From positions 9,417 through 47,444 of the forward strand of contig JAPLHK010000096.1 in assembly GCA_026389715.1 (NCBI GenBank): DNA of 38,028 nt, written 5' to 3'. The notes beneath the pieces were generated by a model that worked only from the letters and a program-made list of their open reading frames with translations, ran no database searches and had not been told where the DNA came from. Of the stretch, positions 2,966-27,940 are shown piece after piece (the first letter of the stretch is position 1; each line of letters begins with the position of its first letter). This DNA is from Chloroflexota bacterium (lineage in GTDB: Bacteria; Chloroflexota; Dehalococcoidia; GIF9; UBA5629). The position numbers and the translations under genes were made by a program.

Positions 2966-2967
2966 GA

Positions 2968-4371: not shown

Positions 4372-4415
4372 AGCATTTCCCCTTTAGCGGTTAATTGCAC
4401 CCGGTGTTGCTGATA

Positions 4416-5156: not shown

Positions 5157-5824
5157 CGCTGTTTTCCCACCAGTTTATTAGCCGTGTAAAGAAACACAGC
5201 GGAGATAAGCGTGAAAAGCAGCACCATGCCCCAGGCCCTGTTCCAGTCGCCACCGGCAACGTCGGCATAAATCGCCAGGGGCATGGTATCCGTTTTGCCC
5301 TCGATATTGCCGGCCAGCATGAGCGTGGCCCCGAATTCGCCCAGCGCGCGCGCGAAGGCCAGTATAGCCCCCGCGTACAAACCCCTGCGCGAGAGAGGCA
5401 GCAGTATACGGAAAAATGTGTGCAACTCGGAATAGCCCATGATATACGAGGCTTGCAGTAGCTTCTCATCCACAGATTCGAAAGCCGCGCGGGTGGTTTT
5501 GATCATCAGCGGCAGGGAAACTATAAATGAGCAAAGCACCGCCGCCTGCCAGGTGAACATCAGTGTATAGCCCGTGAGGCTGTATATATAACCACCCAGC
5601 AGCCCCCTGGCGCCAAAGAGCACCAGCAATATGTAGCCGGTGACCGTGGGCGGCAATACCAGCGGCAGGGTCAGCACGACATCGACGAGTTCCTTACCGT
5701 AAAAATTCCTGCGCGCCAGCAGGTAGGCGAAGACGCAACCGAAGACGACGGAGAATATGGTCGCGATGATGGCGACCTGGAACGACAACCTGACTGAAAA
5801 AAGCACCTGTTCCATATCCGTCAA
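5147..5824 (-). CDS. modB: molybdate ABC transporter permease
   Basis: 225 aa and multi-TM, with the EAA-loop ARALGEFGATLMLAGNIEGKTDT characteristic of ModB. The TTG at 5824 overlaps the modA stop; an alternative ATG lies at 5815. Confidence 0.9.
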   Translation of the reverse strand: MTDMEQVLFSVRLSFQVAIIATIFSVVFGCVFAYLLARRNFYGKELVDVVLTLPLVLPPTVTGYILLVLFGARGLLGGYIYSLTGYTLMFTWQAAVLCSFIVSLPLMIKTTRAAFESVDEKLLQASYIMGYSELHTFFRILLPLSRRGLYAGAILAFARALGEFGATLMLAGNIEGKTDTMPLAIYADVAGGDWNRAWGMVLLFTLISAVFLYTANKLVGKQRWA

Positions 5825-6633
5825 TTGCCTGCGGTCACGGTCTTAAATCCGTAACCGGACAGTATTTTGCCACATTTCTCCGAGCATAAAAAACTGACGA
5901 ACCTAATTGCATAGCCTTTATTGACACTGTTGTTCATAACCGCGGCAGGGTATTCGATCTTGCTGTGCGCTGCCTCCGGGGCCTGCTCAATCAAAGCCAG
6001 CCCGCTCTTCCTGGCCATGTAATCGGTAAGGTAAACCACCCCTGCATCGACTTCCCCGCGAGCAGTGTAATCGCATACCTGGGCCACCTGGGCGCTGGGG
6101 ATAAGCTTGCCAGAGATATTGTCCCCTATCCCGTAATATTTAAAAGCTTCATCGGTATACAGGCCGGCCGGCGCCAGCCTGCTGTCGCACACGGCGATGC
6201 GCCTGACCTGCGGTAGCACCAGGTCGCTAAAGCCATGTAAAGCCTCACTGTGATCAAGCGGGGCGATCAGAACCAGCGAATTAGCCGCGAAGACCCGCAT
6301 GGTATCCCTGTCAACCAGGCCCTTTTCAGCAAGCATATCCATCTCTTTCATGCCGCCGGAAGCGAATACGTCAGCCGACGCACCGGAGGCAATCTGATCA
6401 GCCAGTGTTCCGCTGCCGCTATAGTTGAATTGTAGGACTGCCCCGGGGTTTTCCGCCTCGAATAGCGGGGCCGCCTGGCTGAACGGCTGTTTTAAGCTCA
6501 TGGCGGCAAAGACCATAATCTCGGTTTTTGCTGGTGACGCCGCTGGTGTGCACGCAGGCAATAAGGCGCCCGCGAAAACCAATGCCAGCAAGGCCGGGGC
6601 AGCCACTTTTCCAATAAAATACTGTATATTCAA
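5821..6633 (-). CDS. modA: molybdate-binding periplasmic/lipoprotein component
   Basis: 270 aa with a signal peptide and lipobox (ALLPAC). The ModA-like motif is NYSGSGTLADQIASGASADVFASG. The TTG start is as in the ORF track, but the exact start is uncertain. Confidence 0.85.
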   Translation of the reverse strand: MNIQYFIGKVAAPALLALVFAGALLPACTPAASPAKTEIMVFAAMSLKQPFSQAAPLFEAENPGAVLQFNYSGSGTLADQIASGASADVFASGGMKEMDMLAEKGLVDRDTMRVFAANSLVLIAPLDHSEALHGFSDLVLPQVRRIAVCDSRLAPAGLYTDEAFKYYGIGDNISGKLIPSAQVAQVCDYTARGEVDAGVVYLTDYMARKSGLALIEQAPEAAHSKIEYPAAVMNNSVNKGYAIRFVSFLCSEKCGKILSGYGFKTVTAGN

Positions 6634-6643
6634 AATATCTTAA

Positions 6644-7807
6644 TCAGGGGACGGATTGCCCATGGATTGCTTCGTCGCCTGCGGGCTCCTCGCAATGACT
6701 GTTTTGGAGCGGCCGGCCCGCCCTGGCCTCGATACGCTCCTGTATGAGCCGGGCATTATTATACCTGGTCCCGATAGCATCGAGCGCGTCCCTGTCATCA
6801 CCATACCTGGCCGTTGCCTGCGCAAAGCGGTCAGCAAGACTTACGGGCCTGTCCCCGCTCACCAGCTTGTCGGCCAGGAAAAGGATTTCCCCGGCGCTGA
6901 TATCCTTACCATGACCCGGTTCGATGTCCATATGGGTGATAATAGCTTCCGCAATCCCATGAAATCCGGCCTCCCTGACTATGCGGGCGGCCTCGCGGGC
7001 GTGGCCCGGCTTTCCCCTGGCCAGGTCGTGCAGCAGCGCTGCCGCCAGCACGATCTCCCTGTCGATACCCGCGCCGGCACTATTGAGACAATCTGCGATA
7101 CGGCAGCCTATTTTAGCCACGGCCCGGCAATGCTGCCTTGTGTGTTCGTCCATGCCCGGCATCAGCTCCATCAGGGCTTCGCACTCAGGCTCAGACGGGA
7201 TTTCACGCCGCTTCCATCTCTCCTTCAGTTCCCCGTAATCTGCAGGATTATCGATATCGAAGAGTATATTGCCATCGGGCACCTCCACTTTCACTGTCTC
7301 TGATTCCAACTTCTCCAGCGCGCCTTTAAGGCCGTTTTCGCCTGTGAACCCCATTATCGCCCCCTGTAGCCCGGCGGAGATAAGCGGAGGATGCCCTTTG
7401 CGCCCCCGGAATGATGGTACCAGAATCCTGTTTTTCCCCTCCATAAACCTGTTGACCAGGCTGCGGATAGTTGCAGCGCGCACCAGGGGGATATCGGCGG
7501 GCAAGACGATAAAGGCCTGTGGCCCCTGTTCCATCGCCGATATACCGGCGATAACAGAGGAAAACATGCCTTCTTCATAACGGTCGTTGACGGCCGACCG
7601 CGCGCCTGCCCCTTCAATGACCGGGATTATCAGCTCTTTGCGGTAACCTGCTACAACGATAACCTCATCGATACCGGCCTGCCTGCATGTTTCCACTATG
7701 CGGGTCACTACAGGCCGTCCTCCCAGGTCGAGCAGCGGTTTGAATACACCCATCCGGCTGGAATGGCCGGCCGCCAGTATTATTGCCGTGATGCCTGGTT
7801 TTTCCAT
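6644..7807 (-). CDS. MobA/MocA-like molybdenum-cofactor nucleotidyltransferase fused to an HD-domain
   Basis: 387 aa. The N-terminus AIILAAGHSSRMGVFKPLL is the MocA/MobA NTP-transferase signature. The C-terminal ~170 aa carry HD-type residues (HCRAVAKIG ... LLHDLARGK). The ATG at 7807 overlaps the upstream xdhC-like gene by 28 nt. Confidence 0.75.
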   Translation of the reverse strand: MEKPGITAIILAAGHSSRMGVFKPLLDLGGRPVVTRIVETCRQAGIDEVIVVAGYRKELIIPVIEGAGARSAVNDRYEEGMFSSVIAGISAMEQGPQAFIVLPADIPLVRAATIRSLVNRFMEGKNRILVPSFRGRKGHPPLISAGLQGAIMGFTGENGLKGALEKLESETVKVEVPDGNILFDIDNPADYGELKERWKRREIPSEPECEALMELMPGMDEHTRQHCRAVAKIGCRIADCLNSAGAGIDREIVLAAALLHDLARGKPGHAREAARIVREAGFHGIAEAIITHMDIEPGHGKDISAGEILFLADKLVSGDRPVSLADRFAQATARYGDDRDALDAIGTRYNNARLIQERIEARAGRPLQNSHCEEPAGDEAIHGQSVP

Positions 7808-8844
7808 CGCCTCATCTGCGCCCTTATGTCGATAAGCTCCCCGACTATGCTCACCGCTATTTCCTCGGGTGTTTCGGTGTCTATCTTGACCCCGATGGGG
7901 CAGTGCACCTGCTCAATCTGTTGCGCGCTGACCCCACCCTCCATTAACGCGCGGTAAATAGTATCACGCTTGCGCGCGCTCCCTATCATGCCGATATAGC
8001 CGGCGCCGCTTTTCAGCGCCTGCTCCAGCACCACCTTGTCGCAAAGGTGTCCGCGGGTGACTATTACTATATAGCTCCCGGCATCGACAGGCAGGCCGTC
8101 GAAACATTTATCGAACGATTTCAATACAACTACTTCAATAGGACTGGCGAACCTTTGCGCATTAGCATACTCATCGCGGTCATCCAGCACCACAACGTTA
8201 AACCCCACGCGCAGCGCCAGGTCGGCCACCTCCCTGGAGATATGCCCTGCCCCGAAGATATAAACCGTCCCGCCGTTTATGATAACGTCGGCCCAGTACC
8301 TCTTCCCGTCATACTCGACCAGCGATGAACCGGTCAGCTCGCGGACGCTGTCCTTGAGCCTGGCCAATACCTCTGTATCTTCCCCCTCGTTTCCCACCGG
8401 CGAATCGTGGCCGCTCAACAACCAGTGCCGCCCCCCCACACCCCCATGGCCCGGAAGGGGCGTGACCAGGAAGCACTTGCGGTTATCCCGCCTGTGCTCT
8501 GCGATAGTTTCAAAGATACTTAACGTGCCGGTATCGGCCGGAATAAACTCGAGCAGAAGCTCAACCTTGCCGCCGCACACCATTTTGCCTTCCAGCAAAT
8601 CCCCGGTCATATCAAAGGCAAAAGTGGTTGAATGTTTCGATTTGAACAACTCCCGCGCATTCTGCATTGCAGCAGCCTCAACCAGGCCGCCGCCTACAGT
8701 GCCGTATATTTCACCGCTCTGCCTGATGAGCATACTGGCCCCTGTACCGCGCGGCGCCGAGCCTTTATCGCTTATCACCCTGGCAAATACGACATCTTCA
8801 CCCTGCTGCAACAGCCCGTGAATTGTGTCATAGATATCCGGCAT
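7780..8844 (-). CDS. XdhC/CoxI-family molybdoenzyme maturation factor
   Basis: 354 aa with an ATG 5 nt after GGGAGGA. It has an XdhC N-domain (VFARVISDKGSAPRGTGASMLI...GTVGGG) and a Rossmann-like C-domain (VYIFGAGHISREV). Confidence 0.8.
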   Translation of the reverse strand: MPDIYDTIHGLLQQGEDVVFARVISDKGSAPRGTGASMLIRQSGEIYGTVGGGLVEAAAMQNARELFKSKHSTTFAFDMTGDLLEGKMVCGGKVELLLEFIPADTGTLSIFETIAEHRRDNRKCFLVTPLPGHGGVGGRHWLLSGHDSPVGNEGEDTEVLARLKDSVRELTGSSLVEYDGKRYWADVIINGGTVYIFGAGHISREVADLALRVGFNVVVLDDRDEYANAQRFASPIEVVVLKSFDKCFDGLPVDAGSYIVIVTRGHLCDKVVLEQALKSGAGYIGMIGSARKRDTIYRALMEGGVSAQQIEQVHCPIGVKIDTETPEEIAVSIVGELIDIRAQMRRWKNQASRQ

Positions 8845-8929
8845 TCATGTCCTCCCACAAGTGCCCATATCGATTATTTTTTCGCATCGAAAGGCAATGA
8901 TACAGGACAATAACAGGCCCCTGTCAATA

Positions 8930-11038
8930 TTAATCATAGACAAACATGGTCTTGACAGCCTTGTATTTGCCCTTGTGGATATTAACATCCATCATTTTCT
9001 TATATTCATCCAGCTTGAACTTATGCGTGACCATGTCCTGCAGCTTCAAATCTTTTTTGCTGATAAGGTCGATGGCTATCTCAAACACATGTTTCGTTTG
9101 GCCTTTGCAGTCATGAAACCCGTAATAAAGGCTGCCCTTGAGTGTAATCAGCTTCACCCAGACCATGGTAGGGTCGAATTTAACCTCGCTGGATAAACCG
9201 ATCAGCGATACCACGCCTCCCGTCCTGACCGCCCTCAGCGCCATCGTCACGCTGTCTGATTTGGAAAGGCAATCATAAACGCGGTCGAACCCGCGCATCA
9301 TGGTGGTGGGCCCGAGCAGCGGCTTATAACATTTGCCGCCTGTTATCTCCGCTGCCTCCTCCAACTGATATTTGCCTGAGATTGTGTGATCGGCGCCGGA
9401 TTTCGTTGCCAGTGCCGCGGTGAAATTCGAGCTCACGGCAGCGGTTATTTTGCAGGGGATATCCAGAGCGCGTATGGCATGGATGACCATATTACCGATG
9501 ACGCCTCCGCCGATGACTAATACCTGCTCATCTTTCTGCGGTTTGTTGGAAAGCACGGCCTCCAGGGCGATGGCGAAGGGCTCAATCAGGGCCGCGGTTT
9601 CGGGGTTGATGCCCTGCGGTATTTTATAAACCTGGCTTTTATGAGCGATAATGTATTCGCCAAACCCGCCCGATGTCCCTGCACATACGTCCAGCGCCGT
9701 GCCAGGCGGCAGCTTACCCTCCGCGAAATTCTCGCAGCTGGACAACCCCAACCGGCATGCGCTGCATTCCGCTTCGATGCCCCTCACCTTACAGTTAAGC
9801 ACCGGGCAGACGGTTACAAGGTCACCGGCCTGCAAACCCGGTACACCGGCGCCGGCCCCGGCGATAGTCCCCGCAATCTCGTGCCCCAGGACCGAGGGGA
9901 ATGAGGTATAGGCTGACCAGGCCGGCGAATTCTTCAACATGACGGTATTGACATCACTGGCGCAGACCCCGCAGCGCCTGACTTTTATCTTTACCCAGTC
10001 GCCCGAGGGTAACTTCGGTTCCGGGATATCCACCATACGCACCGCGGAGATCGGCCCCGAAATATCCATGGCCTCAGCATAACTCATCCGTGTTTTCCAG
10101 CCAAGCTCTTTCTGTGCCCTCGATGTGTCTACGTCGTTGGCGCGGCCGACCAGGCCGACGGTATTCCGGCATATCTCGAATTTAGCGTCCAGAGGACGCA
10201 GCAATTTGTCATTGATAGTGCCCAGACCCCAGGCCGCGCTAAAAGGGATGTCGGAGATATTGATCTTCTTCCCGGCTATGGCAGCCAGGTCAAGAGTATA
10301 CTTGCGCCAGGTAACTGTGTAGTCATCGCGGAAATGGTAAGTCCGTCCCCGCGCGGCGTCCTTCTGCAGCGTCAGCATCACGCCGTCCACCAGGTTTTCC
10401 ACATACACCAGGCTGGCATTATATACACCACTGTCGATCATAGGGTATTTTGTGCTCTTCTGCATGACATCGATAGTATTGGTTACCCAGATGCTGCCCG
10501 GGCCGATGACATTGGACGGACGGATGACCGTGGCCGAAATCTTCCCTTTATCATGGTACTGATATACGAGCTTCTCCGTATCATATTTATAGTCACCGTA
10601 ATAGGAATTGCCCGTCCTGAACTCGTAATCGTCCTCCCGGTGGTAGCGCAGGTGGTCGGTCCTGCCACCGGCCCCGGCCGCACAGAAGGAGCTGAAATAT
10701 ACAAAGTGCGGCCGATTATCTTCTATCGCATCCAGCAAGTATTGTGTGGATACGTAAATGCCATCGTAAAACCTCTTCTGTTTTCCCCAGGGACCCAGCC
10801 AGGCCGCCAGGTGGATGATGATATCCATATCCTTGCAGATACCCTTGATCGACTCCGGCCTGGTGAGGTCAGCAATGACCACCTTAATGCCCTGGTCACG
10901 CAGGCGCTGCGCGTTAGTTTCAGATATATCAAGCGCCGTGACCGCATACCCCTCCTTGACCAGCCGCGGGCACAGGAACGACCCGATAAAGCCGCCGGCG
11001 CCGGTTACCAGCACCTTCTTGCCTGTCGCACTATCCAT
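8930..11038 (-). CDS. fusion protein: extended-SDR (NAD-dependent epimerase/dehydratase/reductase-like) + zinc-type medium-chain alcohol dehydrogenase
   Basis: 702 aa with an ATG preceded by AGGAGGGA. Residues 1-325 carry VTGAGGFIGS and a YGDYK (YxxxK) motif. Residues ~328-702 carry RCGVCASD and GHEIAGTI (catalytic Zn ligands), a structural-Zn Cys cluster (CPVLNC...CSACRLGLSSC) and VIGGGVIGN. An in-frame Met lies at the junction (ATG 10069-10067). Confidence 0.75.
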   Translation of the reverse strand: MDSATGKKVLVTGAGGFIGSFLCPRLVKEGYAVTALDISETNAQRLRDQGIKVVIADLTRPESIKGICKDMDIIIHLAAWLGPWGKQKRFYDGIYVSTQYLLDAIEDNRPHFVYFSSFCAAGAGGRTDHLRYHREDDYEFRTGNSYYGDYKYDTEKLVYQYHDKGKISATVIRPSNVIGPGSIWVTNTIDVMQKSTKYPMIDSGVYNASLVYVENLVDGVMLTLQKDAARGRTYHFRDDYTVTWRKYTLDLAAIAGKKINISDIPFSAAWGLGTINDKLLRPLDAKFEICRNTVGLVGRANDVDTSRAQKELGWKTRMSYAEAMDISGPISAVRMVDIPEPKLPSGDWVKIKVRRCGVCASDVNTVMLKNSPAWSAYTSFPSVLGHEIAGTIAGAGAGVPGLQAGDLVTVCPVLNCKVRGIEAECSACRLGLSSCENFAEGKLPPGTALDVCAGTSGGFGEYIIAHKSQVYKIPQGINPETAALIEPFAIALEAVLSNKPQKDEQVLVIGGGVIGNMVIHAIRALDIPCKITAAVSSNFTAALATKSGADHTISGKYQLEEAAEITGGKCYKPLLGPTTMMRGFDRVYDCLSKSDSVTMALRAVRTGGVVSLIGLSSEVKFDPTMVWVKLITLKGSLYYGFHDCKGQTKHVFEIAIDLISKKDLKLQDMVTHKFKLDEYKKMMDVNIHKGKYKAVKTMFVYD

Positions 11039-11069
11039 GGATAACCATCCCTCCTATGAAGTACTGAAC

Positions 11070-12200
11070 TCAATAGCCGTGCTCCCCGTTCCATTTGCGC
11101 GTTTCGTCCAGCATGGCATAGTAGTTCTCGATTTTAACGTAATTAGCCACGGAGTTGACGGTACCCATGCAGTAGCCGCCACCCGGCGCGCAGTGCTTCA
11201 GTATCTGGCGCGTGCGCTGTCTCACTTCGTCTACCGTCCCGCGCGCCATCAAGTCCATGTCTACGCCTCCCAGGATGGCAATACGGTCATGGAATTTGTC
11301 ATACCATTGTTCTACCGGCAGGATGGCATCCTCGAAGCTATGCCTGGCATCAATGCCCACCTCGATGAGGTCTTCCATAAGGGCCATGACCTGCCCGCAG
11401 GAATGGAAAAGGAACAGTTTACCCTTTTTGTGACAGGCATATGCAATGCGCTTCAGTCTGGGGATATAGTACTTTCTCAGGAAACGTGGAGACAGGGTCG
11501 TCCCCCCCTTAAAACCCAGGTCATCCGAATAAAAAATGGCCCCGGTACCTGCATGCGCCGCAGACATGTCGATAGCACATTCAGCAATACGGGTGAGTTG
11601 CTCAAGTATATCCTCCACCAGCTCCGGTTCCTCTATGCTTTTAATAGCCATGTGCTGGGTACCCATGAGTTCACTCAGGTCTTCATAAATTCCGTTGTAC
11701 ATGACCATGATTTTCATGCCGTCGGGCATAACTCCCGCTGCGTAATCAAGGGCAAGCATGCTTATCTGTTCAAGAGAAGGCCATTTATAGGCTTCATATT
11801 CTTCGCGCGTGGTGATAATACCCTGGCCCTCTTCCTTCCAGGCCCGTTTCTGTCTGCGCCGGTCTGTATCGGTGGCCAATTCCCTGCGGGTCTTGGTCAT
11901 CGGAATCACCGGTATCATTGTGACATAATCGTATCCAACTGCTTTGCTGAAAGCTACATTAAGCTCAATCAGCCTGATGCCCATTTCCAGCGCTTCCTGA
12001 TCATCGATCAGTTGACCCGCATTGGTGAAAAGCTCGACTGCCCTGGCGGCCGGATAGTCGATGCCCGTGACCTCGGACATAATCTCGGCATCGGGAAATA
12101 ATTCGATGATAGGTACCGGCCCTTGCGTGACTTGACGCCTCAGCACCTTTTCCAGGTATTCCCAGTTGTACGTAGTCTTGAACGGCCTCTCAATGGGCAT
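11070..12200 (-). CDS. uroporphyrinogen-decarboxylase (URO-D)/MtaA-like family protein
   Basis: 376 aa with an ATG 5 nt after AGGAGG. The C-terminal half (FYSDDLGFKGG, LFLFHSCGQV, ILGGVD) resembles the URO-D/methylcobamide methyltransferase TIM-barrel family. It lies 31 nt upstream of the fusion gene. Confidence 0.6.
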   Translation of the reverse strand: MPIERPFKTTYNWEYLEKVLRRQVTQGPVPIIELFPDAEIMSEVTGIDYPAARAVELFTNAGQLIDDQEALEMGIRLIELNVAFSKAVGYDYVTMIPVIPMTKTRRELATDTDRRRQKRAWKEEGQGIITTREEYEAYKWPSLEQISMLALDYAAGVMPDGMKIMVMYNGIYEDLSELMGTQHMAIKSIEEPELVEDILEQLTRIAECAIDMSAAHAGTGAIFYSDDLGFKGGTTLSPRFLRKYYIPRLKRIAYACHKKGKLFLFHSCGQVMALMEDLIEVGIDARHSFEDAILPVEQWYDKFHDRIAILGGVDMDLMARGTVDEVRQRTRQILKHCAPGGGYCMGTVNSVANYVKIENYYAMLDETRKWNGEHGY

Positions 12201-12403: not shown

Positions 12404-13951
12404 TTACTTGGCTGTTATATCCCGTATCACCTTATAGAGCGGCTTCAGCCTGTCGTACATCTTGAGGTAGACCTCGTTATACAGCCTGTCGTATATGCGC
12501 CGCGTATCCTGGTTGGGCTCGAAGACATCCCCCAGATGGGTCATCTCGCCAACGGCAGTCTTGAAATCGGGATGCACCTTCACACCTACGGCTGCATCGA
12601 TGGCGGCGCCCAACCCGGAGGCCTCGTAAACGTGCGGCCTGGCGGCCGGCAAGCCGAAGATATCAGCGGTCAACTGCATGGCGGCGTTGCTCTGGCTCCC
12701 TCCTCCCGCGATGCGCAGGTCGGTCACCTTGACACCACTGCGTTTTTCCGTCTTTTCGCGGCCCTCGCGCAGGGCATAGGCCAAACCCTCAAGCATGGCG
12801 CGGTAGATATGCGCCCTGGTGTGGTTATCGCCGAACCCCACGATGGCGCCGCGCGCCTCGGGACCGGGGAAGCGCAGGCCGGGCGACCAGTAAGGCTGCA
12901 AGACCAGCCCGTCCGAGCCGGGCGGAACGGATTTCACCAGGTCGTCGAAGAGCGTTTCCGGCTCAACGCCCTTTTCGGCTGCGATCCGCTCTTCGCGCAG
13001 GCCGAACTCCTGCTTGAACCAGCTTACCATCCAGTACCCGCGGAATATCTGTATCTCGAAGTTGTAAAGCATGGGCACCGCCGCCGGGTAGGGCGGGATA
13101 AGGGGGATGACCTCGATGTACTTGCCGTGCGTGGTGTTGATAGTGGCGGTTGTGCCGTAGCTGAGGCAGGCCACGTTCGGCTCCAGCGCGCCCGACCCCA
13201 GCACCTCGCAGGCTTTGTCAGCCGCAGCGGCAATCACGGGCAGCCTGGCCGGTATGCCCGTCGCCTCGGAAGCTTTAGCGGATATCTCGCCCATCACCTG
13301 GCCTTGGGTTATCAGGTCGGGCAGCATCTTCGGGTCAACCGGTATGGCCTGCCACTTCCAGCCGCTCTTGCCCTCCCAGTCCTGGCTCTTGTAGTCGAAG
13401 GGCACGTAACCCACCTGGCTCCCCTTTGAGTCAACGAATCTACCGGTCAAAAGATAGGACAGGTATCCGGAAAGAAACAAATATTTGTAGGTTTTATTCC
13501 ATACCTCGGGCTGGTGCGTACGTATCCAGTTGGCCTCGGCCTCGGCCTGCAGGTAACCCACGGTCTCGCTGGCGCCGGCCACGGCGAACAGCGCGCCCCA
13601 AACCCCACCCAAAGGAGGAAGGCCCTCGGTGCGGCGCTGGTCAAGCCAGATGATGGCCGGCCTGAGCGGTTCACACTTATCGTCCACGTTAACCATGCTG
13701 GCGCGCTGCGTGGTAAGCGCTACCGCGGCGATGCTTTCTTTCTTGACCTCCGGCTTCTCCCACAATGCCCGGCAGGCCTGCGCGATGGATTCCCAGTATA
13801 GCTGCGGCCTCTGCTCGGCCAGACCCGGGGCATCGGAATAATAGGGCTCGTAGGCCACCCTGGATTTGGCGATCAGTTTACCTTTCGGATCGAATAACAG
13901 CACCCGGACGCTCTGCGTCCCAACGTCGATAGATAGCAAGTTTTCTGCCAC
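12404..13951 (-). CDS. FGGY-family carbohydrate/polyol kinase
   Basis: 515 aa with a GTG start 6 nt after AAGGAGG. It has an N-terminal [11 protein letters not shown] phosphate-1 motif and a C-terminal [27 protein letters not shown] signature. It lacks the canonical GlpK DQGTTS motif. Confidence 0.85.
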
Positions 13952-14009
13952 GGTCAGCCTCCTTTCAATATTAATATTTCAATCAACTGGCTCAGTTAAA
14001 GCTACACGT

Positions 14010-15743
14010 CTACGGTCTGAATCCCCAGCGTTTTTCCATCTGCTCGGCTGTCATATCCAGTCCCAGCGTGCCGCCGGGGTTCATCACATGATGCGGGTCG
14101 AAATGATCGCGCAGGGCGCGAATTAATTCGAATTGCTGCTTGCCTATCTGCCCCTCAAGCCAGGGCCCCGTTTGCTTGCCGATGCCGTGGTGGTGGCTCA
14201 TGGCCGCCCCGGCCTTCTGGATAGCGTCGAGTACACCGTATTGCAGCTCGAGGTACTCATTGATCTCCTTCATTTTGGCCAGGAAAATAAAATACAGGTT
14301 GCCACCCTGCGGATAGGCATGCGACAGGTGGGTCATGCAAATGGTGCGCGGGCGCGACTTGATATATGCTCTGACCTCGCTGTGCACACTGGCCAGGTTT
14401 TCCCACCTCACAGCACATTCCAGCGTGTCTATCAGTACGCCATAATCCATCAGGTCCTCGCGCATGAAGGGATCGGTGTAACGGCTCTTCTCCCACGATT
14501 GCGTGACCTTAGCCGCCGTCAGGCTGAATGCATGGTATTTCTTGAAGATGCTGTTGACCTTCTTATCGATCAGCCTGGCTAAATCTTTATCACCATCCGC
14601 CAGTCCGATGAACATACAGCGCTGCATAGGCTTGTATCCCAGCAACTGCAAGATCGAATCGACCGGGGTGCCGTGCACGTGATACATGCGCATGGCCACG
14701 TCCGTCTCTTCAGGGTCGGAGAGGCGGAATACTGACGGGAAGCCGAACTCGCCCTGCATCACCTCGCGGCAGGCCTCAAGCCCATCCTCCCAGGTCTTGA
14801 AGAGGTAGGAAAACCGGCGTCTATTTTCCGGTTGGTAACGGCACAGCCTCAGCGTGCAGCTTACCAGTATGCCAAAGGTGCCTTCGCTGCCTATCATGAT
14901 CTGGTCGAAATCCGGCCCGGTGGCCGAGCGCGGGAAATCCGCAGTTTTAAAATCCCCGATCGGCGTCACATACTCCTGCGAGATGACCATGTCTTCTATC
15001 TTGCCGTAATAGGTGGAGTTCTGGCCCGCCCCCCGCGTCACCACCCAGCCGCCCACGCTGGAATGCTCGAAAGACTGCGGGAAATGGCCCACGGTGTAGC
15101 GGCGTTTCGCACCCAGCGTTTTCGGAGCATTGTTCAGGATACGCTCCAATTCAGGACCCATGATGCCGGGTTGCACCGTGACAGTCTGGTCGGTCTCGTT
15201 GATGCTGACTACCTTGTCCATGTGTGCATTCATATCCAGGCAGACTCCACCCCTGACCGCCTCCTTGCCGCGTGTCACACTGGAATTGCCGCCGGCAGCG
15301 TACAGCGGCAGCCGGTTTTCGTCACAGTACTTGACTAATGCTTCAACATCACGCCTATCGCGGGGGTAGACAACGGCATCAGGAAGGTTCTCCACGATAT
15401 GATAGCGGAGGCGCAGGACATCTATGATGGCAGCGCCGTAGGAGGCGCGTGTCCGGTTATAGGTATCGGTGAGAACATTATCCGCGCCGGCCATATCCTT
15501 TAAAGCCGCTATCTGGCCGGACGATAATTTGCAGGGGACATCTATATCCAGCTCCTCCACGCAGAGGCTGGGCTTTTGAAATTCCTCATCCTTCATGCCG
15601 AAAGCGTCTTTGAGCAGGTGGAACATGCCGGGGTTGGGATGTTTGAAGCCCTTCGGATCACCGTATTTAATCAGGCTGCGGTAGGAGCGCGCCGGCGCTT
15701 CCTCCTCACACCACTGCGGGTAGAATCCATGCTTGCTTGCCAT
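14010..15743 (-). CDS. FAD-linked oxidase, alkylglycerone-phosphate synthase (AGPS)-like
   Basis: 577 aa with an ATG 4 nt after GGAGGG. It has a PCMH FAD domain (LYAAGGNSSVTRG), an ~100-aa N-terminal extension and SHHHGIGKQ (HHH loop) in place of the GEHGIG of GlcD-type enzymes. Confidence 0.7.
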   Translation of the reverse strand: MASKHGFYPQWCEEEAPARSYRSLIKYGDPKGFKHPNPGMFHLLKDAFGMKDEEFQKPSLCVEELDIDVPCKLSSGQIAALKDMAGADNVLTDTYNRTRASYGAAIIDVLRLRYHIVENLPDAVVYPRDRRDVEALVKYCDENRLPLYAAGGNSSVTRGKEAVRGGVCLDMNAHMDKVVSINETDQTVTVQPGIMGPELERILNNAPKTLGAKRRYTVGHFPQSFEHSSVGGWVVTRGAGQNSTYYGKIEDMVISQEYVTPIGDFKTADFPRSATGPDFDQIMIGSEGTFGILVSCTLRLCRYQPENRRRFSYLFKTWEDGLEACREVMQGEFGFPSVFRLSDPEETDVAMRMYHVHGTPVDSILQLLGYKPMQRCMFIGLADGDKDLARLIDKKVNSIFKKYHAFSLTAAKVTQSWEKSRYTDPFMREDLMDYGVLIDTLECAVRWENLASVHSEVRAYIKSRPRTICMTHLSHAYPQGGNLYFIFLAKMKEINEYLELQYGVLDAIQKAGAAMSHHHGIGKQTGPWLEGQIGKQQFELIRALRDHFDPHHVMNPGGTLGLDMTAEQMEKRWGFRP

Positions 15744-15804
15744 GTCACCCTCCTCTGATCAGGATTTCTCAGATTAGTATTTATGCACTGCAATCCAGCA
15801 GGCT

Positions 15805-17391
15805 TCAACCGGGTTTGGGGCTGTAATACGTCTGCCAGGTATTCAAATAGGCCGTTGATTCCTGCTGCCAGCGCTCGTCACTCCAGCCCAGTTCCCCCTG
15901 CGTAATAGTGCGGATGCGCTCGAGGTGCTCCTTGGCCCCGTTGGGCAGCAGCATGCCTATTCTGACCCGCCGCATGAGCAAATCGGCCAGGTGCACCACA
16001 CCCTCCTCGCGCGCCGCCCAGCGCAGCTCTGCCCAGATATTCGGCAGGCTGCCGATGCGCTCCAGTTCCCCTGCGCCGGCGGTCTTGATAAGTTCCGCTG
16101 TTTCGCCTCCGTGGCGCCCTTTGATGTAGGCCAGGGTGGCCGGGTTGATATTGGGCGCCTTGATATCCGGCTGCCGGGGGAAAACACGCTTCAACTTGAT
16201 GACCGGAAGCTTGCCCAGCTTGGCCAGCACGACCATCACCGTCTGCTTGGCCATGATGCGGAAGGTGGTATATTTGCCGCCGGTGATAGTTATCAGGCCA
16301 TCCTCCTGCCAGAGAGCGTGCCCCCGCGATTCCTTTCCCGGGGTGTCGGCGCCTCCCTTGATGATCGGGCGCACGCCTGAGAAAGAAGATATCATGTCGC
16401 TTTCCTTAAGCCCTAGGGTGGGGAATAGGAATGAAGCCGCCTCCATCATGTAGCTTATCTCGTCGCCGCTGGCAAAAGGCTCGGAATACCTGCTGTCCAG
16501 CGCCGCGTCGTGGTCGATATCGGTTGTCCCGAGGATAGTGGCGCCCTCCCAGGGAATGACGAACATGGCGCGGTTATCCTTGGGGTGCAGCAGGGTCAGG
16601 GCGTCTTTCATCGGCAGCCGTTCCCGCGGGAAAATGAGGTGGCTGCCGCGCAACCTGCGCAGCCTGGCGGGTTGCGAGATCTGGCCACGGACGATATCCG
16701 CCCAGGGGCCCGAGGCGTTTACCACTACCCCGGCTTTTATCTCAACCGTTTTGCCGTCCTGGGAAGAGGTATCTTTCAGCGCAACACCGCATACCTGGCC
16801 CTTGCTGTCCTTAAGCAGCTTCTCCGCCTTAGCGTAGTTGAGAACCGTACCGCCTGCCCTGACCGCTTCCCAGAGGACCCGCAGTACGATGCGGCTGTCA
16901 TCCATGGCGGCATCGTAATACAGGTACCCATCCAGCATCCCATCCGCCTTCAATACCGGGTACTCTTTAAGTATCTTCTCTTTGCTGTAGGGATGATGAT
17001 CCCACTTGGGGGCAAGGAGGTCGTAAATGGCAATGATAGTGCCGAGCTGCTTGGTTTTTATATGGTAACGCTCGAAATTGGGAAAGATGAAGCCCAGCTT
17101 GGTGACCAGGTTGGGCGCCTCTCTAAGTATCCATTCCCGCTCGCGCACCGACTCCTGCGTGACCTTGTATTGCTTGTTGAGGATATAACGCAGGCCGCCG
17201 TGGATCAGTTTGGATGAGCGGCTGGACGTGCCCGAAGCAAAGTCGTTGGCTTCCACCAGCAGGGCCTTCAACCCGGCCGCCACCGCGTGGCGCAGCACCC
17301 CTGCACCTGTTATACCTCCGCCGATAATAATCAGGTCCCACGGCTGATCAAGGTTTGACCAGGTCTGTTCGCGCCATCCTTTACGCCACAT
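15805..17391 (-). CDS. FAD-dependent glycerol-3-phosphate dehydrogenase-like (GlpD/GlpA family)
   Basis: 528 aa with an ATG 5 nt after AAGGAG. It carries DLIIIGGGITGAG and the FASGTSSRSSKLIHGGLRY signature, and has a C-terminal helical domain. Confidence 0.85.
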   Translation of the reverse strand: MWRKGWREQTWSNLDQPWDLIIIGGGITGAGVLRHAVAAGLKALLVEANDFASGTSSRSSKLIHGGLRYILNKQYKVTQESVREREWILREAPNLVTKLGFIFPNFERYHIKTKQLGTIIAIYDLLAPKWDHHPYSKEKILKEYPVLKADGMLDGYLYYDAAMDDSRIVLRVLWEAVRAGGTVLNYAKAEKLLKDSKGQVCGVALKDTSSQDGKTVEIKAGVVVNASGPWADIVRGQISQPARLRRLRGSHLIFPRERLPMKDALTLLHPKDNRAMFVIPWEGATILGTTDIDHDAALDSRYSEPFASGDEISYMMEAASFLFPTLGLKESDMISSFSGVRPIIKGGADTPGKESRGHALWQEDGLITITGGKYTTFRIMAKQTVMVVLAKLGKLPVIKLKRVFPRQPDIKAPNINPATLAYIKGRHGGETAELIKTAGAGELERIGSLPNIWAELRWAAREEGVVHLADLLMRRVRIGMLLPNGAKEHLERIRTITQGELGWSDERWQQESTAYLNTWQTYYSPKPG

Positions 17392-17503
17392 AATTGCTCC
17401 TTTGAAACGAATTTAACAGTTAGCCGGCACCGCATTGTGGGCGCCGCAATTGCATTGCTTAGATTATTGCTAAACGGGACTGTTGTCAATACTTCGGCAG
17501 GAT

Positions 17504-18316
17504 TTACCCTACATCCACCAGTGACCTGATGTTCCTGGTTGCCAGATCTACCGCGCCTGCACTGTATTCAACAACGATGGCGTCGAGCGGGCAGGCCAGT
17601 GAGCAACGTCCGCAGCCCCGGCAGGCATTGCTAAGCACGGCTGCGCCATTTACCATTGAAATGGCATTGACAAAGCATACTCCTTCGGCGCATATGCCGC
17701 AGCCGCTGCACCCTTCAGTTACCCTGACATTGACGCCCGGCATCTTTTTAACCGTGGCGCCGATATCCTCAGAAACGACTGGCAGCATCCTCCACAGGCA
17801 GCAGCAGGGGCAGCAATTGCATATAGTGAGAAGCTTATTACCGGGTCCCACGCCCAGCCAGACTGCGTCCAGCTTATTGCGGCCGATGAGGTGAACCAGT
17901 CCGGCCTCCCTGCACTTCCTGGCATGCTCCAGCGCCTCGTCACGGGTTACCCTTCTGCCCAGCGCGGGGTTAATGCCCAGCGCTGCCTCTCCCAGGAAAA
18001 TGCAGCCCAACCCTATCGGGTAATCTGCGCAATGCGAGGCCTGGCGGCAGATGCAGTTATCCATCACCCAGTGATAATTGGCCTCGTTGATGAAACGTTC
18101 CACCAGGATGGAGGGGAGCACCACCTGTTCCGGCGCATCAACATCCAGGCCAACCTGCACCACGCGGTCCGATGGCAGGAAAACCAGGTCATCCCCGTCA
18201 AAAAGCCACTTCTGCAGTGCTTTCCCCACAACCGGCCAACGCGTTACCCCGGCCAGCACGAACCTTCCGGGGAAACCGGCCCTGATCAAGGCTACCAGCC
18301 ATGTTGGCCTTGCCAT
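17504..18316 (-). CDS. Fe-S protein: unknown N-domain with CNCCPCCC cluster + 2x[4Fe-4S] ferredoxin domain
   Basis: 270 aa. The C-terminus has CSGCGICAEGVC and CRGCGRCSLACP motifs. An unusual TICNCCPCCCLW run and further Cys (NCICRQASHC) lie upstream. Confidence 0.7.
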   Translation of the reverse strand: MARPTWLVALIRAGFPGRFVLAGVTRWPVVGKALQKWLFDGDDLVFLPSDRVVQVGLDVDAPEQVVLPSILVERFINEANYHWVMDNCICRQASHCADYPIGLGCIFLGEAALGINPALGRRVTRDEALEHARKCREAGLVHLIGRNKLDAVWLGVGPGNKLLTICNCCPCCCLWRMLPVVSEDIGATVKKMPGVNVRVTEGCSGCGICAEGVCFVNAISMVNGAAVLSNACRGCGRCSLACPLDAIVVEYSAGAVDLATRNIRSLVDVG

Positions 18317-18348
18317 CTATACAGGCAAACTCCTCGATTAGAACAATT

Positions 18349-18888
18349 TTACTTGTACGGGAAAAGGGCCGGCCAGATGAAGGCGTCGATCATGCCGGTC
18401 TGGACAAAAAACATGGCGGCCCCACCAACGGCCAACCAGTAATTCAAAGCCGGCTCTTTCTGAGTAATGACCAGCAGTGAATATAGTAAGGCCAGTGAAG
18501 CCAGGCCGACTGCAAAAAGCACCAGGCGTATATAGAACCGCCAGCCCGGCCACTGCGTCTCGATAAGTTTATAGGTGAGCGGCATCCAGAACGCGGAGAA
18601 GACCAGAATGACCATGAATATCATGTCGAGCACCAGAAATCCATCGAAACCACCGATGTGCACGGTCTTGGCATCGAGATGAAAGAAGATAAAATGAAGG
18701 CAAAGCAGGTAACCCACAGCAGCCATCGGCATGCTCACCAGATAAATCGATTTGAGAGCCGGGGTGATGCGCCCCCACAGAAGCTCTTCCGTGTTGGGGT
18801 GGCTGATTAGTCCCGCCGCGTAGCTGGCAACAACCGCGAGGCCCCCCAGCACATTTATAATGAGGAACCAGATCTTCTGCTCGTCCAT
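18349..18888 (-). CDS. small integral membrane protein, unknown family
   Basis: 179 aa with an ATG 7 nt after GGGAGG and about five hydrophobic helices. It is the first gene of the operon and ends 32 nt before the Fe-S gene. Confidence 0.6.
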   Translation of the reverse strand: MDEQKIWFLIINVLGGLAVVASYAAGLISHPNTEELLWGRITPALKSIYLVSMPMAAVGYLLCLHFIFFHLDAKTVHIGGFDGFLVLDMIFMVILVFSAFWMPLTYKLIETQWPGWRFYIRLVLFAVGLASLALLYSLLVITQKEPALNYWLAVGGAAMFFVQTGMIDAFIWPALFPYK

Positions 18889-18953: not shown

Positions 18954-20334
18954 CTATTTCCAGCTGCCGTCTCTCAGATTGATGGTAATATTGTTGTCTG
19001 CCGGCGGCAGGTCGTTCCACAGGCCGATAATCAGGTCTTTGCGGTACTGTATAACTGCCCAGGCCAGCGGACTGAGTCCCGTCTCAATAACCGGCTGCTG
19101 TCCCGGAGCCAGCTTTTCATCGCCGGCAAAATGCGCAACGAAAGCCGGGGCTATCTGCTTGGCTATGTTCTCGGATTCGGCCTGGCCTATCCCGTAGCCC
19201 ATCAAAGTCCTGGTGGCCATGCCGGCTACCTGGTCAAACAGGTATTGCCTGCCGAACTGAGGGAAATCGCTGGGATGCGATTTGATAGAGGTCACCATCC
19301 CCTCGGTGATAGCGGCCTGCTGATCCTTGCTTATATTAACGATGCGATACGGACAAGGGTAGGTGACCAGCGAACCGGTTTCGATATCATACACGAACTT
19401 GCCACTGTCGGCATAATTTTTCATGGTGATATCCTGAGCGTGAAAATGGCCGGTGAAGACCATGCGCGCGTTGTAGCTGGCGAACAGCTTGGCAACCCGC
19501 TTCGTAATCATCCACGATCCATGCGCCGTAGTTCTTCTCCTGGCCTGCGTAATGCTCCATGATGCCGTGGTGCATCATCACTATGACGGCCTTGTTGTTT
19601 TTAGCCGCCTGTCCCAGCATACTCTCGATCCAGGCCAGGGTCTTAGGGCTGAATTTACCGTCTGTGATCGTTTCCTTGTCCTCCACGTTCTCCTTCCAGC
19701 GGCAGGAATCCAGTGCCAGCAGCCATAACCCGGGCTGAGGCTCGGCGACATAGCTGACAGAATCGGTGTCGCGCTGCAGGGCATCCTTGTAGCCGTAATC
19801 AGCGTATATCTGCGTGAACTGTTCGGCGGTTATGTTGGGGACGCGCTTCTTGCCATCGCCCACATAACCATAAGAGAGGCCGTTCTTAATGTCATGGTTG
19901 CCCGGTACCACGTACACTTTCTTGCCGGCGGCCTTCAACTGGGCCAGGTAGCTGGCCGCCAGTTCATGCGATGCCTTCTCCCCGTCCTTGGTCAGGTCAC
20001 CATTCACCAGCACGATATTGGCCTTGAGATCCTTTATGGCAGCAAGGGCTGATTCAGTAATCTCCGAGCTTTCCCTTATCAGCTTGTTATCATTAGCTAC
20101 ATAGGCCTCGAAGGCCTTCCCCGTCGTTCCCAGCGACGTATCAAAGACATGCGGATCGCTAAAAACCACGAAACTTGTTTCCGGGTAGTCCGGGGCCTTG
20201 GCCAGCAGCGAAACCAGTGATTTGTCGTTTTGGTACTTGAAGGATGGTTGGGATGCACAGGCTGCCAGACTTGCAATCAATATGAGAGCAAAAACTATTT
20301 GGACGATTGCGGGAAATTGTTTTACCGCCTTCAT
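18954..20334 (-). pseudogene. lipoprotein calcineurin-like metallophosphoesterase, split by a 1-nt frameshift
   Basis: Two overlapping ORFs (19387-20334 and 18954-19511) together carry all five phosphoesterase motifs. VVFSDPH, VNGDLTKDG, VVPGNHD and VMMHHG are in frame 1; FTGHFHAQD is in frame 2. Deleting one C of the CCC run at 19496-19498 restores ...DDYEAVAKLF.... The signal peptide has lipobox SLAAC. Confidence 0.7.
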
Positions 20335-20463: not shown

Positions 20464-21741
20464 CTACAATAGCGGATTCATCACTCTTCCCACGAAGATG
20501 ACCGACCCTGTCTTGATATCCCTGATAAGAAAGATGAAGGGATGGTCCACCGTTACCTCCAGCGGTATTACCGGCATGGCGGTAGCCCGCATGATGACGG
20601 CTGTGGCAGCCGCGGCCTCGGTGCCGGATTCATCGACCGACACGAAGGCCTTGTGTACCACCTCGGATATGGAGAGTTCCCGGTTTCCCGTCATTCCGGA
20701 GAAATCAGCCTGCCCCGAGAAGGCGATGGGCATGCCCATGTCCGCCAGTACCTTGCCCAGGCTGAACTCGGACTCATATTTGAAGCTCGGCAGGCTGAGC
20801 GCAACCTGTTTAGGAGTAATCCCGTTTATGATTGAGGCCACTTTTCCTGCGTCCAACGACTTTTCGAATTCGGCGAATTTACCCTCTTCGGGCAGTAATA
20901 CCACCATCTCGAGCTCACGCCCGTCATAAGGAAGCGTCACCGCCTGGAAACCGCTGCCTCCGGCGTATCCCAGGCGCTCGGTCTGGTGCATCATCGGCAC
21001 CTTGACGGCAGATCCATCGGCCAGGTGGAAATCGGCCGGTTGCGTAGCGTTTTTCTCGAAATTGTTGGCCCAGGCGGCATTGAAATAGATAGCATTGGTC
21101 AGCACCAGCCTGGTCAGAGGATCGATGGCGCCGGGTGGTATCAGGTCCTTGATGCGCTGCTCTGTCTGGTCTTCGACCCACTTGTTGATGGTTATGCGGG
21201 AATCATCCGGCGCCGTGCGGAAATCCAGCGTCCTGAGTCCCGTGCCGTAGTCCTCTGCCAGCAGATCGAGATATTGCGCCAGGAAAGGATATCCTGTCTG
21301 CCCCCAGATGGCATTGACGATATTTAAGCGGAAGCCTTTACCATCCTTGCCTTTGGCTCCCTGACCTCGGGCCGATAGTTCCTGGTCAAGGCCGTTAAAG
21401 GCCGGGTGCAGGCGGTCCTGCGGCAGGGTGTAGTGCAGCGTTGTCGCCATCTGTTTTTCCGTAGTATCACGCGCACCGGCATAGGTCGTGGCCAGGGCGA
21501 GAGAAATCGAATACGGAGAATAAAAGAGGTTGCCCTGCGTTCCATTAAGCGCCTGGTACAGGTCCAGTGCAAAGGCGTTGTTGCCGTCAACCAGAGCGGC
21601 CAGGTCGGCCTGGCTCACGGCCGGGGCTACCCTCGGCTTGTCCGACCTCTGCACGTCACTTGATGACGGCTGCGCGCAAGCCGCCAGGCCGGTCAGCAAA
21701 ACAAGGCCCAAACTTGTCACGTACAACCATTTTGATTTCAT
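20464..21741 (-). CDS. serpin-family protease inhibitor, lipoprotein
   Basis: 425 aa with an ATG 7 nt after AGGAGG and lipobox LTGLAAC. It has the serpin hinge/RCL ESGTEAAAATAVIMRATAMPVIP and a C-terminal VDHPFIFLIRD...GRVMNP. Confidence 0.9.
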   Translation of the reverse strand: MKSKWLYVTSLGLVLLTGLAACAQPSSSDVQRSDKPRVAPAVSQADLAALVDGNNAFALDLYQALNGTQGNLFYSPYSISLALATTYAGARDTTEKQMATTLHYTLPQDRLHPAFNGLDQELSARGQGAKGKDGKGFRLNIVNAIWGQTGYPFLAQYLDLLAEDYGTGLRTLDFRTAPDDSRITINKWVEDQTEQRIKDLIPPGAIDPLTRLVLTNAIYFNAAWANNFEKNATQPADFHLADGSAVKVPMMHQTERLGYAGGSGFQAVTLPYDGRELEMVVLLPEEGKFAEFEKSLDAGKVASIINGITPKQVALSLPSFKYESEFSLGKVLADMGMPIAFSGQADFSGMTGNRELSISEVVHKAFVSVDESGTEAAAATAVIMRATAMPVIPLEVTVDHPFIFLIRDIKTGSVIFVGRVMNPLL

Positions 21742-27770: not shown

Positions 27771-27903
27771 GTTACCTCCTTGTTATTGGCTGATTAACCA
27801 ACCGGACATTATCCTTTTTTTTCACACGGATGGCAAGCCGGATTCCGGCCGCTCAACACATGCGCGCCAGGCGGGCGCCGATTTATCCCGATGTGGCTTC
27901 CGC

Positions 27904-27932: not shown

Positions 27933-27940
27933 TCTTGCAC

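Follow-up and report, generated by a model that had tools for sequence, protein, structure and literature searches.

A conserved three-gene module of an AGPS-family flavoenzyme, an FGGY-family kinase, and a glycerol-3-phosphate-type dehydrogenase in anaerobic bacteria, with a possible role in ether-lipid salvage

We identified a three-gene module in a stretch of 38,028 nucleotides (hereafter the window; assembly GCA_026389715.1, contig JAPLHK010000096.1, positions 9,417 to 47,444) from a member of the Chloroflexota (Dehalococcoidia; GIF9; UBA5629). The module consists of a GlpD/GlpO-like FAD-dependent glycerol-3-phosphate (G3P)-type dehydrogenase (528 aa, 15805–17391), a flavoenzyme of the alkylglycerone-phosphate synthase (AGPS) family (577 aa, 14010–15743), and an FGGY-family kinase (515 aa, GTG start, 12404–13951); all coordinates are window positions, and these three genes as well as two accessory genes upstream of them lie on the minus strand. 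The conserved unit is this trio and not the quintet that an initial annotation had proposed from the sequence alone. Tentatively, we favour a salvage or catabolic ether-lipid route in which the kinase, the dehydrogenase, and the AGPS-type enzyme would act in turn on a 1-O-substituted glycerol. The data show to which families the three enzymes belong, that the catalytic residues of AGPS are conserved, and that the genes are linked across phyla; the substrates, the order of the steps, and the direction given below are predicted.

The 577-aa protein is assigned to the AGPS family as a genuine member, and not to the GlcD-type or D-lactate dehydrogenases (D-LDH). Its Pfam domains are FAD_binding_4 (PF01565, 3.5e-32, residues 121–267) and FAD-oxidase_C (PF02913, 9.5e-32, residues 305–557). 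The best sequence matches among solved structures were Dictyostelium ADPS (2uuu, 1.6e-69, residues 56–557, approximately 32% identity) and mammalian AGPS (4bby, 3e-50), with D-LDH behind them (1e-23). The FAD domain starts at residue 121, as compared to residue 47 in the GlcD-type paralogue of the window (2968–4371), and the N-terminal extension of approximately 100 aa is therefore real; it represents the AGPS N-terminal region, because 2uuu and 4bby outscore D-LDH and the 2uuu alignment spans residues 56–557. The resulting layout of N-terminal AGPS-type domain, FAD domain, and cap domain is shared with the eukaryotic enzymes, and the 2uuu alignment runs unbroken across the cap. In a Foldseek search with the AlphaFold model (pLDDT 76), the first 37 matches were all AGPS chains (query-normalised TM-scores of 0.65–0.79), followed by D-LDH-type dehydrogenases (0.63–0.66).

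The catalytic set known from eukaryotic AGPS (Arg, Arg, Tyr, and a triple-histidine loop, HHH) is complete in the window protein. Arg340, Arg428, Tyr484, and His517–519 are invariant in 72 homologues (53–97% identity), and the first three align to R352, R447, and Y508 of the Dictyostelium enzyme, which are required for catalysis as shown by mutagenesis (PMC3509576). Alignment to guinea-pig AGPS matched the set to R419, Y578, and H615–H617, the latter being the HHH loop. The loop motif SHHHGIGK starts at residue 516, and the GlcD-type paralogue has G-E-H at the HHH positions (motif GEHGIG). Both motifs had been reported in the initial annotation, and the AGPS-like identity that it derived from the HHH loop is borne out by sequence, fold, and conservation among the 72 homologues. 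It had named nesting within lactate/glycolate dehydrogenases with a non-conserved HHH as the case that would speak against this identity; we found AGPS to be closer and the HHH to be invariant. The protein is 96–97% identical to proteins on the metagenome-assembled genome (MAG) contigs L001–L003, and matches to it at E ≤ 1e-20 numbered in the thousands in a homology search. As an AGPS homologue the protein is not new, since many members already bear the label alkyldihydroxyacetonephosphate synthase at JGI. The phylogenetic signal of AGPS is reported to be low (PMC13012113).

Gene neighbourhoods were compared in a scan of one genome per species, which yielded 80 loci with AGPS relatives of at least 53% identity, 55 of them with enough flanking sequence. 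A G3P-dehydrogenase-type gene stands beside AGPS in 49 of the 55 loci, both this gene and an FGGY kinase gene accompany AGPS in 47, and neither is found beside it in six. The AGPS relatives span six or more phyla of anaerobic bacteria, with carriers in Dehalococcoidia, Anaerolineaceae, Thermodesulfobacteriota, Clostridia, Thermotogota, Spirochaetes, Syntrophales, and Holophagaceae, including the cultured Ornatilinea apprima P3M-1 (Anaerolineaceae) and Oceanirhabdus seepicola (Clostridia; locus L056). Linkage of the trio is more than chance, because it recurs across phyla, which the two accessory genes do not. Of the proposed five-gene unit, the link between kinase, GlpD-like, and AGPS-like genes thus stands and is conserved far beyond this genome, while the Fe-S and membrane protein genes proved to be lineage-specific.

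Gene order is GlpD-AGPS-FGGY in Chloroflexota and Thermodesulfobacteriota. Clostridia, Thermotogota, and most Spirochaetes have instead a set of three dehydrogenase genes, followed by FGGY and AGPS. A spirochaete locus (L080) has GlpD, an inverted FGGY, and AGPS; it also contains a gene of the DUF1564 family, which is typical of Leptospira. Two Chloroflexota loci, L032 and L033 (10001–17906), encode an AGPS homologue without kinase or dehydrogenase, next to a Zn alcohol dehydrogenase, an aldehyde:ferredoxin oxidoreductase, a xylose-isomerase-like TIM-barrel protein, a creatininase-family protein, and an Ldh_2 dehydrogenase; this alcohol-to-aldehyde-to-acid set could process a fatty alcohol in either direction. 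MAG MFD03726.bin.2.102 has two copies of the locus, L003 (CAVWAG010000011.1) and L005 (CAVWAG010000004.1). In the latter, the longest AGPS open reading frame (ORF) has 495 aa and the kinase is matched only as two pieces that overlap (61% and 39% identity), which suggests a decaying second copy or a strain mixture.

The 528-aa dehydrogenase contains DAO (PF01266, 2.9e-48) and DAO_C (PF16901, 2e-14) domains, and its solved relatives are 3da1 (4.7e-68) and E. coli GlpD (2qcu, 9.6e-49). Its scores to the equivalog models are all below cut-off (PRK12266, 254 vs. 360 bits; PRK13369, 232 vs. 352 bits; GlpO type 1, 250 vs. 840 bits). A GlpD-type gene adjoins AGPS in 39 of the 55 loci. An unrelated dehydrogenase trio is present in 11, one of which (L039) also has GlpD; this replacement set, the one of Clostridia, Thermotogota, and most Spirochaetes, comprises a DAO protein with a BFD [2Fe-2S] domain, which is G3P-oxidase type 2-like (247 bits), and Pyr_redox_2 and DUF1667 proteins. 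Such non-orthologous replacement is strong evidence of selection for the dehydrogenase activity beside AGPS, and thus of functional coupling and not of inherited synteny.

The kinase (FGGY_N and FGGY_C domains) is neither GlpK nor XylB. It scored 254 bits to its best NCBIfam model, XylB (TIGR01312, cut-off 380), and 154 bits to GlpK (TIGR01311, cut-off 590). GlpK specificity rests on five positions, of which R83, E84, Y135, and D245 form hydrogen bonds to glycerol while F270 packs against it (Zhang et al., PMC3245297); these positions were mapped provisionally with an E. coli GlpK reference sequence. The window kinase retains R83 and D245, as well as W103, but has E84 replaced by A, Y135 by L, and a gap at F270. 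The same pattern was found in 53 AGPS-linked kinases, in which R83 and the catalytic D245 are invariant, E84 is replaced by A, S, G, N, or D, Y135 is replaced by L in 42 of the 53, and F270 is missing. As these kinases share 42–47% identity across phyla, they form their own FGGY subfamily, one that accompanies AGPS. The kinase motif quoted in the initial annotation is present, and the view expressed there that it is not of the GlpK type is upheld by both the below-cut-off score and the lost signature residues. At two polar contacts with the distal end of glycerol, small or hydrophobic residues have taken over; this would be compatible with a 1-O-substituted glycerol as substrate, though it is no proof of one. 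By these scores, both kinase and dehydrogenase are distinct from the housekeeping glycerol enzymes.

In 19 loci, which bear the labels Anaerolineaceae, Levilinea, Ornatilinea, or Chloroflexota, a same-strand FadR regulator gene is located directly upstream of the module. The FadR of O. apprima (L052) passed the NCBIfam FadR cut-off (203 vs. 189 bits), has an acyl-CoA-binding FadR_C domain, and is separated from the module by 37 nt. The same position is occupied by a GntR-FCD/FadR_C regulator in one spirochaete locus that has the replacement dehydrogenase set, and a HutC/UTRA-type GntR regulator heads the loci of Clostridia, Thermotogota, and a few others. Proteins with an SCP2 lipid-binding domain are encoded downstream of the trio in nine Dehalococcoidia loci. 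The FadR and SCP2 neighbours point to lipids. SCP2 domains occur in a type fused to a multi-pass membrane region (nine Dehalococcoidia loci) and in a type fused to an FMN-reductase/flavodoxin-like domain (three Dehalococcoidia loci); examples of SCP2 protein genes are at 8616–9662 (minus strand) of L015 and 13289–14359 (minus strand) of L019.

Clustering of neighbourhoods and a Pfam survey of 197 non-recurrent flanking ORFs revealed no recurrent fatty acyl-CoA reductase (FAR), dihydroxyacetone-phosphate acyltransferase (GNPAT), or PlsC-type neighbour in the 80 loci, and no transporter recurs beside the trio in this set. EryC/isomerase and polyol transporter genes were found neither in the flanks of the window module nor recurrently in the 80 loci, and aldolase genes do not recur there either.

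In the reading that we tentatively favour, the kinase would phosphorylate a 1-O-substituted glycerol, either a monoalkyl- or a monoacyl-glycerol, at its free primary hydroxyl, the dehydrogenase would oxidise C2 to yield the matching 1-substituted dihydroxyacetone phosphate (DHAP), and the Tyr of the AGPS-type enzyme would deprotonate C1, giving a covalent flavin-N5 adduct from which the C1 substituent would be exchanged or removed. Inputs would be scavenged ether or ester monoglycerides, and outputs a fatty alcohol or fatty acid plus the C3 skeleton as DHAP or acyl-DHAP. The last step follows the known AGPS mechanism, in which the carbanion formed when Tyr takes the pro-R C1 hydrogen attacks flavin N5, and the C1 substituent then departs before another nucleophile is added (PMC3509576). 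The trio is read as three consecutive steps because AGPS chemistry needs a 1-substituted DHAP and a kinase plus a C2 dehydrogenase would yield exactly this. We lean towards inducible salvage or catabolism because repressor-type GntR regulators (FadR or HutC/UTRA) head the operons, the FAD dehydrogenases are of a catabolic kind, an ATP-spending kinase is the constant partner, and neither a transporter nor a FAR/GNPAT partner is recurrent. For a membrane-permeant lipid substrate, no recurrent transporter would be expected. A more specific form of this route, which we regard as unlikely, is oxygen-independent consumption of 1-O-alkylglycerols. The FGGY enzyme would here be an 'alkylglycerol kinase', the G3P-type dehydrogenase would form alkyl-DHAP, and the AGPS-type enzyme would run its second half-reaction in reverse, expelling fatty alcohol from the flavin adduct with water or a carboxylate in its place, and DHAP would enter glycolysis.

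Several points weigh against salvage or catabolism. To our knowledge, every AGPS characterised so far is biosynthetic, and we know of no FGGY kinase that acts on a lipid. Canonical AGPS excludes water and its flavin adduct is stable (PMC3509576); as ester-to-ether exchange is also thermodynamically downhill, ether cleavage would need a functional shift. Plain G3P, and not a 1-substituted G3P, is the substrate that most simply accounts for the recruitment of two unrelated, ordinary families of G3P dehydrogenase. Lipase, beta-oxidation, and fatty-alcohol dehydrogenase genes are not recurrent near the trio. FadR and its acyl-CoA sensing fit lipid synthesis as well as breakdown, and FAR or GNPAT genes could sit elsewhere in the carrier genomes, as the survey covered neighbourhoods.

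Conventional ether-lipid biosynthesis, de novo or glycerol-fed, is possible though somewhat unlikely. Kinase and dehydrogenase would supply DHAP, an acyltransferase encoded elsewhere would convert it to acyl-DHAP, and AGPS would use a fatty alcohol to form 1-O-alkyl-DHAP for membrane lipids; in a variant, the FAD dehydrogenase would run in reverse as an alkyl-DHAP reductase with low-potential donors. The fully conserved catalytic residues and the biosynthetic role of all characterised AGPS enzymes (PMC3509576, PMC9131029) argue for this route, as do the JGI label of many members and the FadR-type control, which suits membrane-lipid homeostasis. Carriers also include groups with known or suspected ether lipids: sulfate reducers and Thermotoga-type ether-lipid producers have been discussed in a study that also detected distant homologues of agps in part of the genomes with a Ger homologue (PMC13159169), and Dehalococcoidia and Anaerolineae correlate with branched glycerol dialkyl glycerol tetraethers (PMC12383918). 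However, DHAP is a central metabolite, so that its supply would not call for a kinase and FAD dehydrogenase of its own, and the kinase lacks the GlpK signature. Furthermore, FAR, GNPAT, and PlsC-like genes do not recur in the 80 loci, unlike in the Myxococcus operon described below, and HutC/UTRA-type repressors are unusual for membrane-lipid synthesis genes.

An FGGY kinase followed by a GlpD-like enzyme is also the logic of EryA/EryB erythritol catabolism, the alternative raised in the initial annotation. In such a non-lipid polyol or sugar-alcohol route, the kinase would act on a polyol, the GlpD homologue would produce a keto-phosphate, and the AGPS-like enzyme would act on this water-soluble keto-phosphate or on a non-lipid glyceryl ether. 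Xylulokinase as the best, though below-cut-off, NCBIfam model of the kinase (254 bits), the HutC/UTRA regulators of Clostridia, Thermotogota, and Spirochaetes, which are typical of sugar catabolism, and a polyol/threonine-dehydrogenase-like half of a 702-aa fusion protein encoded downstream in the window would all suit this route. The fusion is, however, limited to the closest relatives, no isomerase, aldolase, or transporter gene is recurrent beside the trio, and the FadR and SCP2 neighbours indicate lipids. As the third enzyme keeps every AGPS catalytic residue and the whole AGPS fold, including the N-terminal domain, we disfavour the erythritol-type alternative and consider a polyol route improbable.

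The two accessory genes of the five-gene unit encode an Fe-S protein (270 aa, 17504–18316) and a membrane protein (179 aa, 18349–18888). All five ORFs were found on the same strand with the coordinates, gaps, and Shine-Dalgarno sequences given in the initial annotation, and a Pfam profile search of the five proteins agreed with the domain content given there. From the membrane protein gene to the kinase gene, the gaps are 32, 112, 61, and 58 nt, and GGAGG-type Shine-Dalgarno sequences precede all five starts (GGGAGG, GAGGAG, AAGGAG, GAGGAGGG, and AAGGAGG). None of the five proteins reached an NCBIfam equivalog cut-off. The 112-nt gap before the GlpD-like gene (17392–17503) contains a perfect TTGACA, as read directly from the sequence, followed by an A/T-rich AATAAT/TAATCT stretch that resembles a -10 element. 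This gap may hold an internal promoter, and thus a separate transcription start, for the three-gene core, although the evidence is weak. Counts in a promoter/terminator consensus scan were not above those in shuffled sequences, and the TTGACA of the gap was not among its matches; operon boundaries were therefore not drawn from the scan. An internal start would be consistent with the lack of the Fe-S gene at that position in most relatives.

The Fe-S protein has 19 Cys, with 10 of the 11 Cys in its N-terminal Cys-rich domain being invariant. Its Pfam matches (Fer4 and LdpA_Fe-S-bd) are confined to a C-terminal 2x[4Fe-4S] ferredoxin region (residues ~200–250), and no CCG or GlpC-type domain was detected by Pfam. 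The protein is thus not GlpC-like, which argues against a GlpABC-type G3P dehydrogenase; the CCG protein of the window is encoded elsewhere (1760–2965), beside the GlcD paralogue. The AlphaFold model has low confidence (mean pLDDT 57). The protein belongs to a large Chloroflexota family of approximately 270-aa proteins, but its gene is directly upstream of GlpD only in the close relatives L003–L005 and in the context of a homologue with 67% identity (P0146, order Metallophos-Serpin-FeS-GlpD-HD-AGPS-FGGY), and is absent from most trio loci. A family member with 61% identity (P0176) has no GlpD nearby. From these contexts, the Fe-S protein was rejected as a general GlpD partner and core feature. 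In this lineage, it may accept electrons from the dehydrogenase as a local partner outside the conserved system.

The 179-aa protein matches no Pfam or NCBIfam family and belongs to a small family of 128 matches; four hydrophobic segments are clear in it and a fifth is probable, whereas no membrane-spanning segments were predicted in the kinase, GlpD-like, and AGPS-like proteins. The gene of the 179-aa protein is found beside GlpD or the trio only in some Dehalococcoidia, and relatives with 43–44% identity are encoded in unrelated gene contexts, which rules it out as a conserved partner. Dehalococcoidia commonly lack quinones, and an alternative electron acceptor is therefore plausible. Together with the shared strand, the short gaps, the individual ribosome-binding sites, and the position of the Fe-S gene directly ahead of GlpD in L003–L005 and the P0146 context, this would suit a single redox/ether-lipid operon in which the membrane and Fe-S proteins form an obligatory membrane-bound electron outlet of the GlpD-like enzyme. 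Given the many trio loci without the Fe-S gene, the Fe-S family member without GlpD nearby, the lack of a CCG or GlpC-type domain, the restriction of the membrane protein to some Dehalococcoidia with relatives elsewhere in the genome, and a 112-nt gap whose -35-like hexamer suggests a separate start of the trio, we consider such a five-gene unit very improbable.

Directly downstream of the trio (8930–12200, minus strand), two same-strand genes encode a 376-aa protein, the C-terminal half of which matches URO-D/MtaA-type methyltransferases, and the 702-aa fusion of a NAD-dependent epimerase/short-chain dehydrogenase/reductase (SDR) domain (weak OleD, HpnA, and Male-sterility matches) and a polyol/threonine-dehydrogenase-type Zn alcohol dehydrogenase. 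An epimerase-family SDR is also part of the Myxococcus AGPS operon. We did not adopt the two genes as pathway members for fatty-alcohol or alkyl-DHAP steps, as they occur only in the closest relatives (L003 and L005) and the alcohol dehydrogenase half is polyol/threonine-dehydrogenase-like. Just upstream of the five genes, a metallophosphoesterase lipoprotein gene (18954–20334, minus strand) is split into the overlapping ORFs 19387–20334 and 18954–19511. Its relatives are single proteins of approximately 460 aa and tblastn places a change of frame near 19500–19523, which indicates a frameshift due to either pseudogenisation or an assembly error. This gene precedes the trio in approximately 20 Dehalococcoidia loci. 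The only solved relative of its product is Listeria Lmo2642 (2xmo), a cyclic-nucleotide phosphodiesterase; a role as lipid phosphodiesterase was therefore dropped and the gene is regarded as an unrelated conserved neighbour. Further upstream, a 425-aa protein of the Serpin family (5.8e-118; 20464–21741, minus strand) has an N-terminal hydrophobic stretch ending in Cys and is thus lipoprotein-like; many Dehalococcoidia loci likewise have a serpin homologue within a few kb ahead of the module.

Near the start of the window (41–844, minus strand), approximately 11.5 kb from the trio, a 267-aa membrane protein belongs to the YhhN family. This family includes the TMEM86-type lysoplasmalogenases, which hydrolyse vinyl ethers, and the gene is therefore a second possible ether-lipid gene of the window. 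The region 1760–8844 (minus strand) encodes XdhC, a MobA-like nucleotidyltransferase-HD fusion, and a three-gene ABC transporter with an SBP_bac_11-type binding protein (possibly for molybdate/tungstate), followed by the GlcD-type flavoprotein and the CCG/Fer4 Fe-S protein. The region resembles a set of molybdenum/tungsten-cofactor genes with a dehydrogenase pair of the lactate/glycolate type behind it. The hydrogenase maturation genes hypF (24283–26580), hypD (29259–30350), and a hypE-like gene of the AIR-synthase family (30142–31347, with a listed start that overlaps hypD) are located at 24283–31347 on the plus strand and fit an anaerobic, hydrogen-metabolising host.

The module shares features with several known systems. 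As compared to eukaryotic AGPS, with its common layout, fold, and catalytic residues, the window-type enzyme is bacterial, occurs in strict anaerobes, is coupled to a kinase and a G3P-type dehydrogenase, and lacks recurrent FAR/GNPAT neighbours; its activity and reaction direction are predicted. Among bacterial AGPS operons, one has been studied to date: in Myxococcus xanthus, MXAN_1676-1675-1674 encode AGPS, a FAR-GNPAT fusion, and a NAD-dependent epimerase-family protein (SDR) that are implicated genetically in alkyl ether lipid formation, and ether lipids decrease slightly upon deletion (PMC9131029, PMC13012113). This operon resembles our locus in having a bacterial AGPS homologue in an operon, but its partners are FAR-GNPAT and SDR in an aerobic host and not FGGY kinase and FAD dehydrogenase in anaerobes. 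The glpK-glpD glycerol operons (in Firmicutes and Thermotogae, glpK with DAO-BFD/Pyr_redox_2/DUF1667 genes) follow the same logic of kinase to FAD G3P dehydrogenase, use the same two dehydrogenase types, and have a repressor gene in front. They differ in that the kinase here is not GlpK, a GlpF facilitator is lacking, and an AGPS-type enzyme is added. EryA and EryB are likewise an FGGY kinase and a GlpD-like FAD dehydrogenase acting in succession, whereas our module has no EryC, isomerase, or transporter genes, has an AGPS-type third enzyme, and is accompanied by lipid-type regulators and lipid-binding neighbours.

Animals salvage 1-O-alkylglycerol by phosphorylation, which is the same as the first step proposed here, and the recently identified kinase, ACAD10, consists according to its authors of a kinase and a phosphatase in separate domains (PMC13596139). 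The outcome proposed for our route, loss of the 1-O-alkyl chain, is achieved by alkylglycerol monooxygenase (AGMO; PMC3617469), which depends on O2 and tetrahydrobiopterin and is the only enzyme described for cleavage of saturated lipid ethers (PMC3617469, PMC9192799). In contrast, the route proposed here would be oxygen-independent and flavin-based. ACAD10 is not known to be related to the FGGY kinases. No paper in the searchable literature connects AGPS to glpD or to an FGGY kinase, and none deals with alkylglycerol cleavage by anaerobes. We found no published description of a kinase-dehydrogenase-AGPS module with alternative dehydrogenases and lipid-type regulators, which thus is apparently undescribed.

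AGPS is known as an aerobic enzyme of ether-bond formation, of a eukaryotic and myxobacterial type. Anaerobes are thought to make ether lipids via other routes, namely PlsA/R and Ger (PMC13159169). The AGPS clade described here is well conserved and widespread among strict anaerobes, and it is tied to a kinase and a G3P-type dehydrogenase rather than to FAR/GNPAT. If the module is biosynthetic, 1-O-alkyl glycerol lipids would have a new candidate origin in Chloroflexota, Thermodesulfobacteriota, and Holophagaceae of peat and sediments, which would bear on the question of which bacteria produce ether-lipid biomarkers. If it is catabolic, it would represent the first oxygen-free breakage or salvage of alkylglycerol ethers and include a bacterial alkylglycerol kinase, which, if true, would explain the recycling of ether lipids by fermenters such as Anaerolineae and Dehalococcoidia in anoxic sediments.

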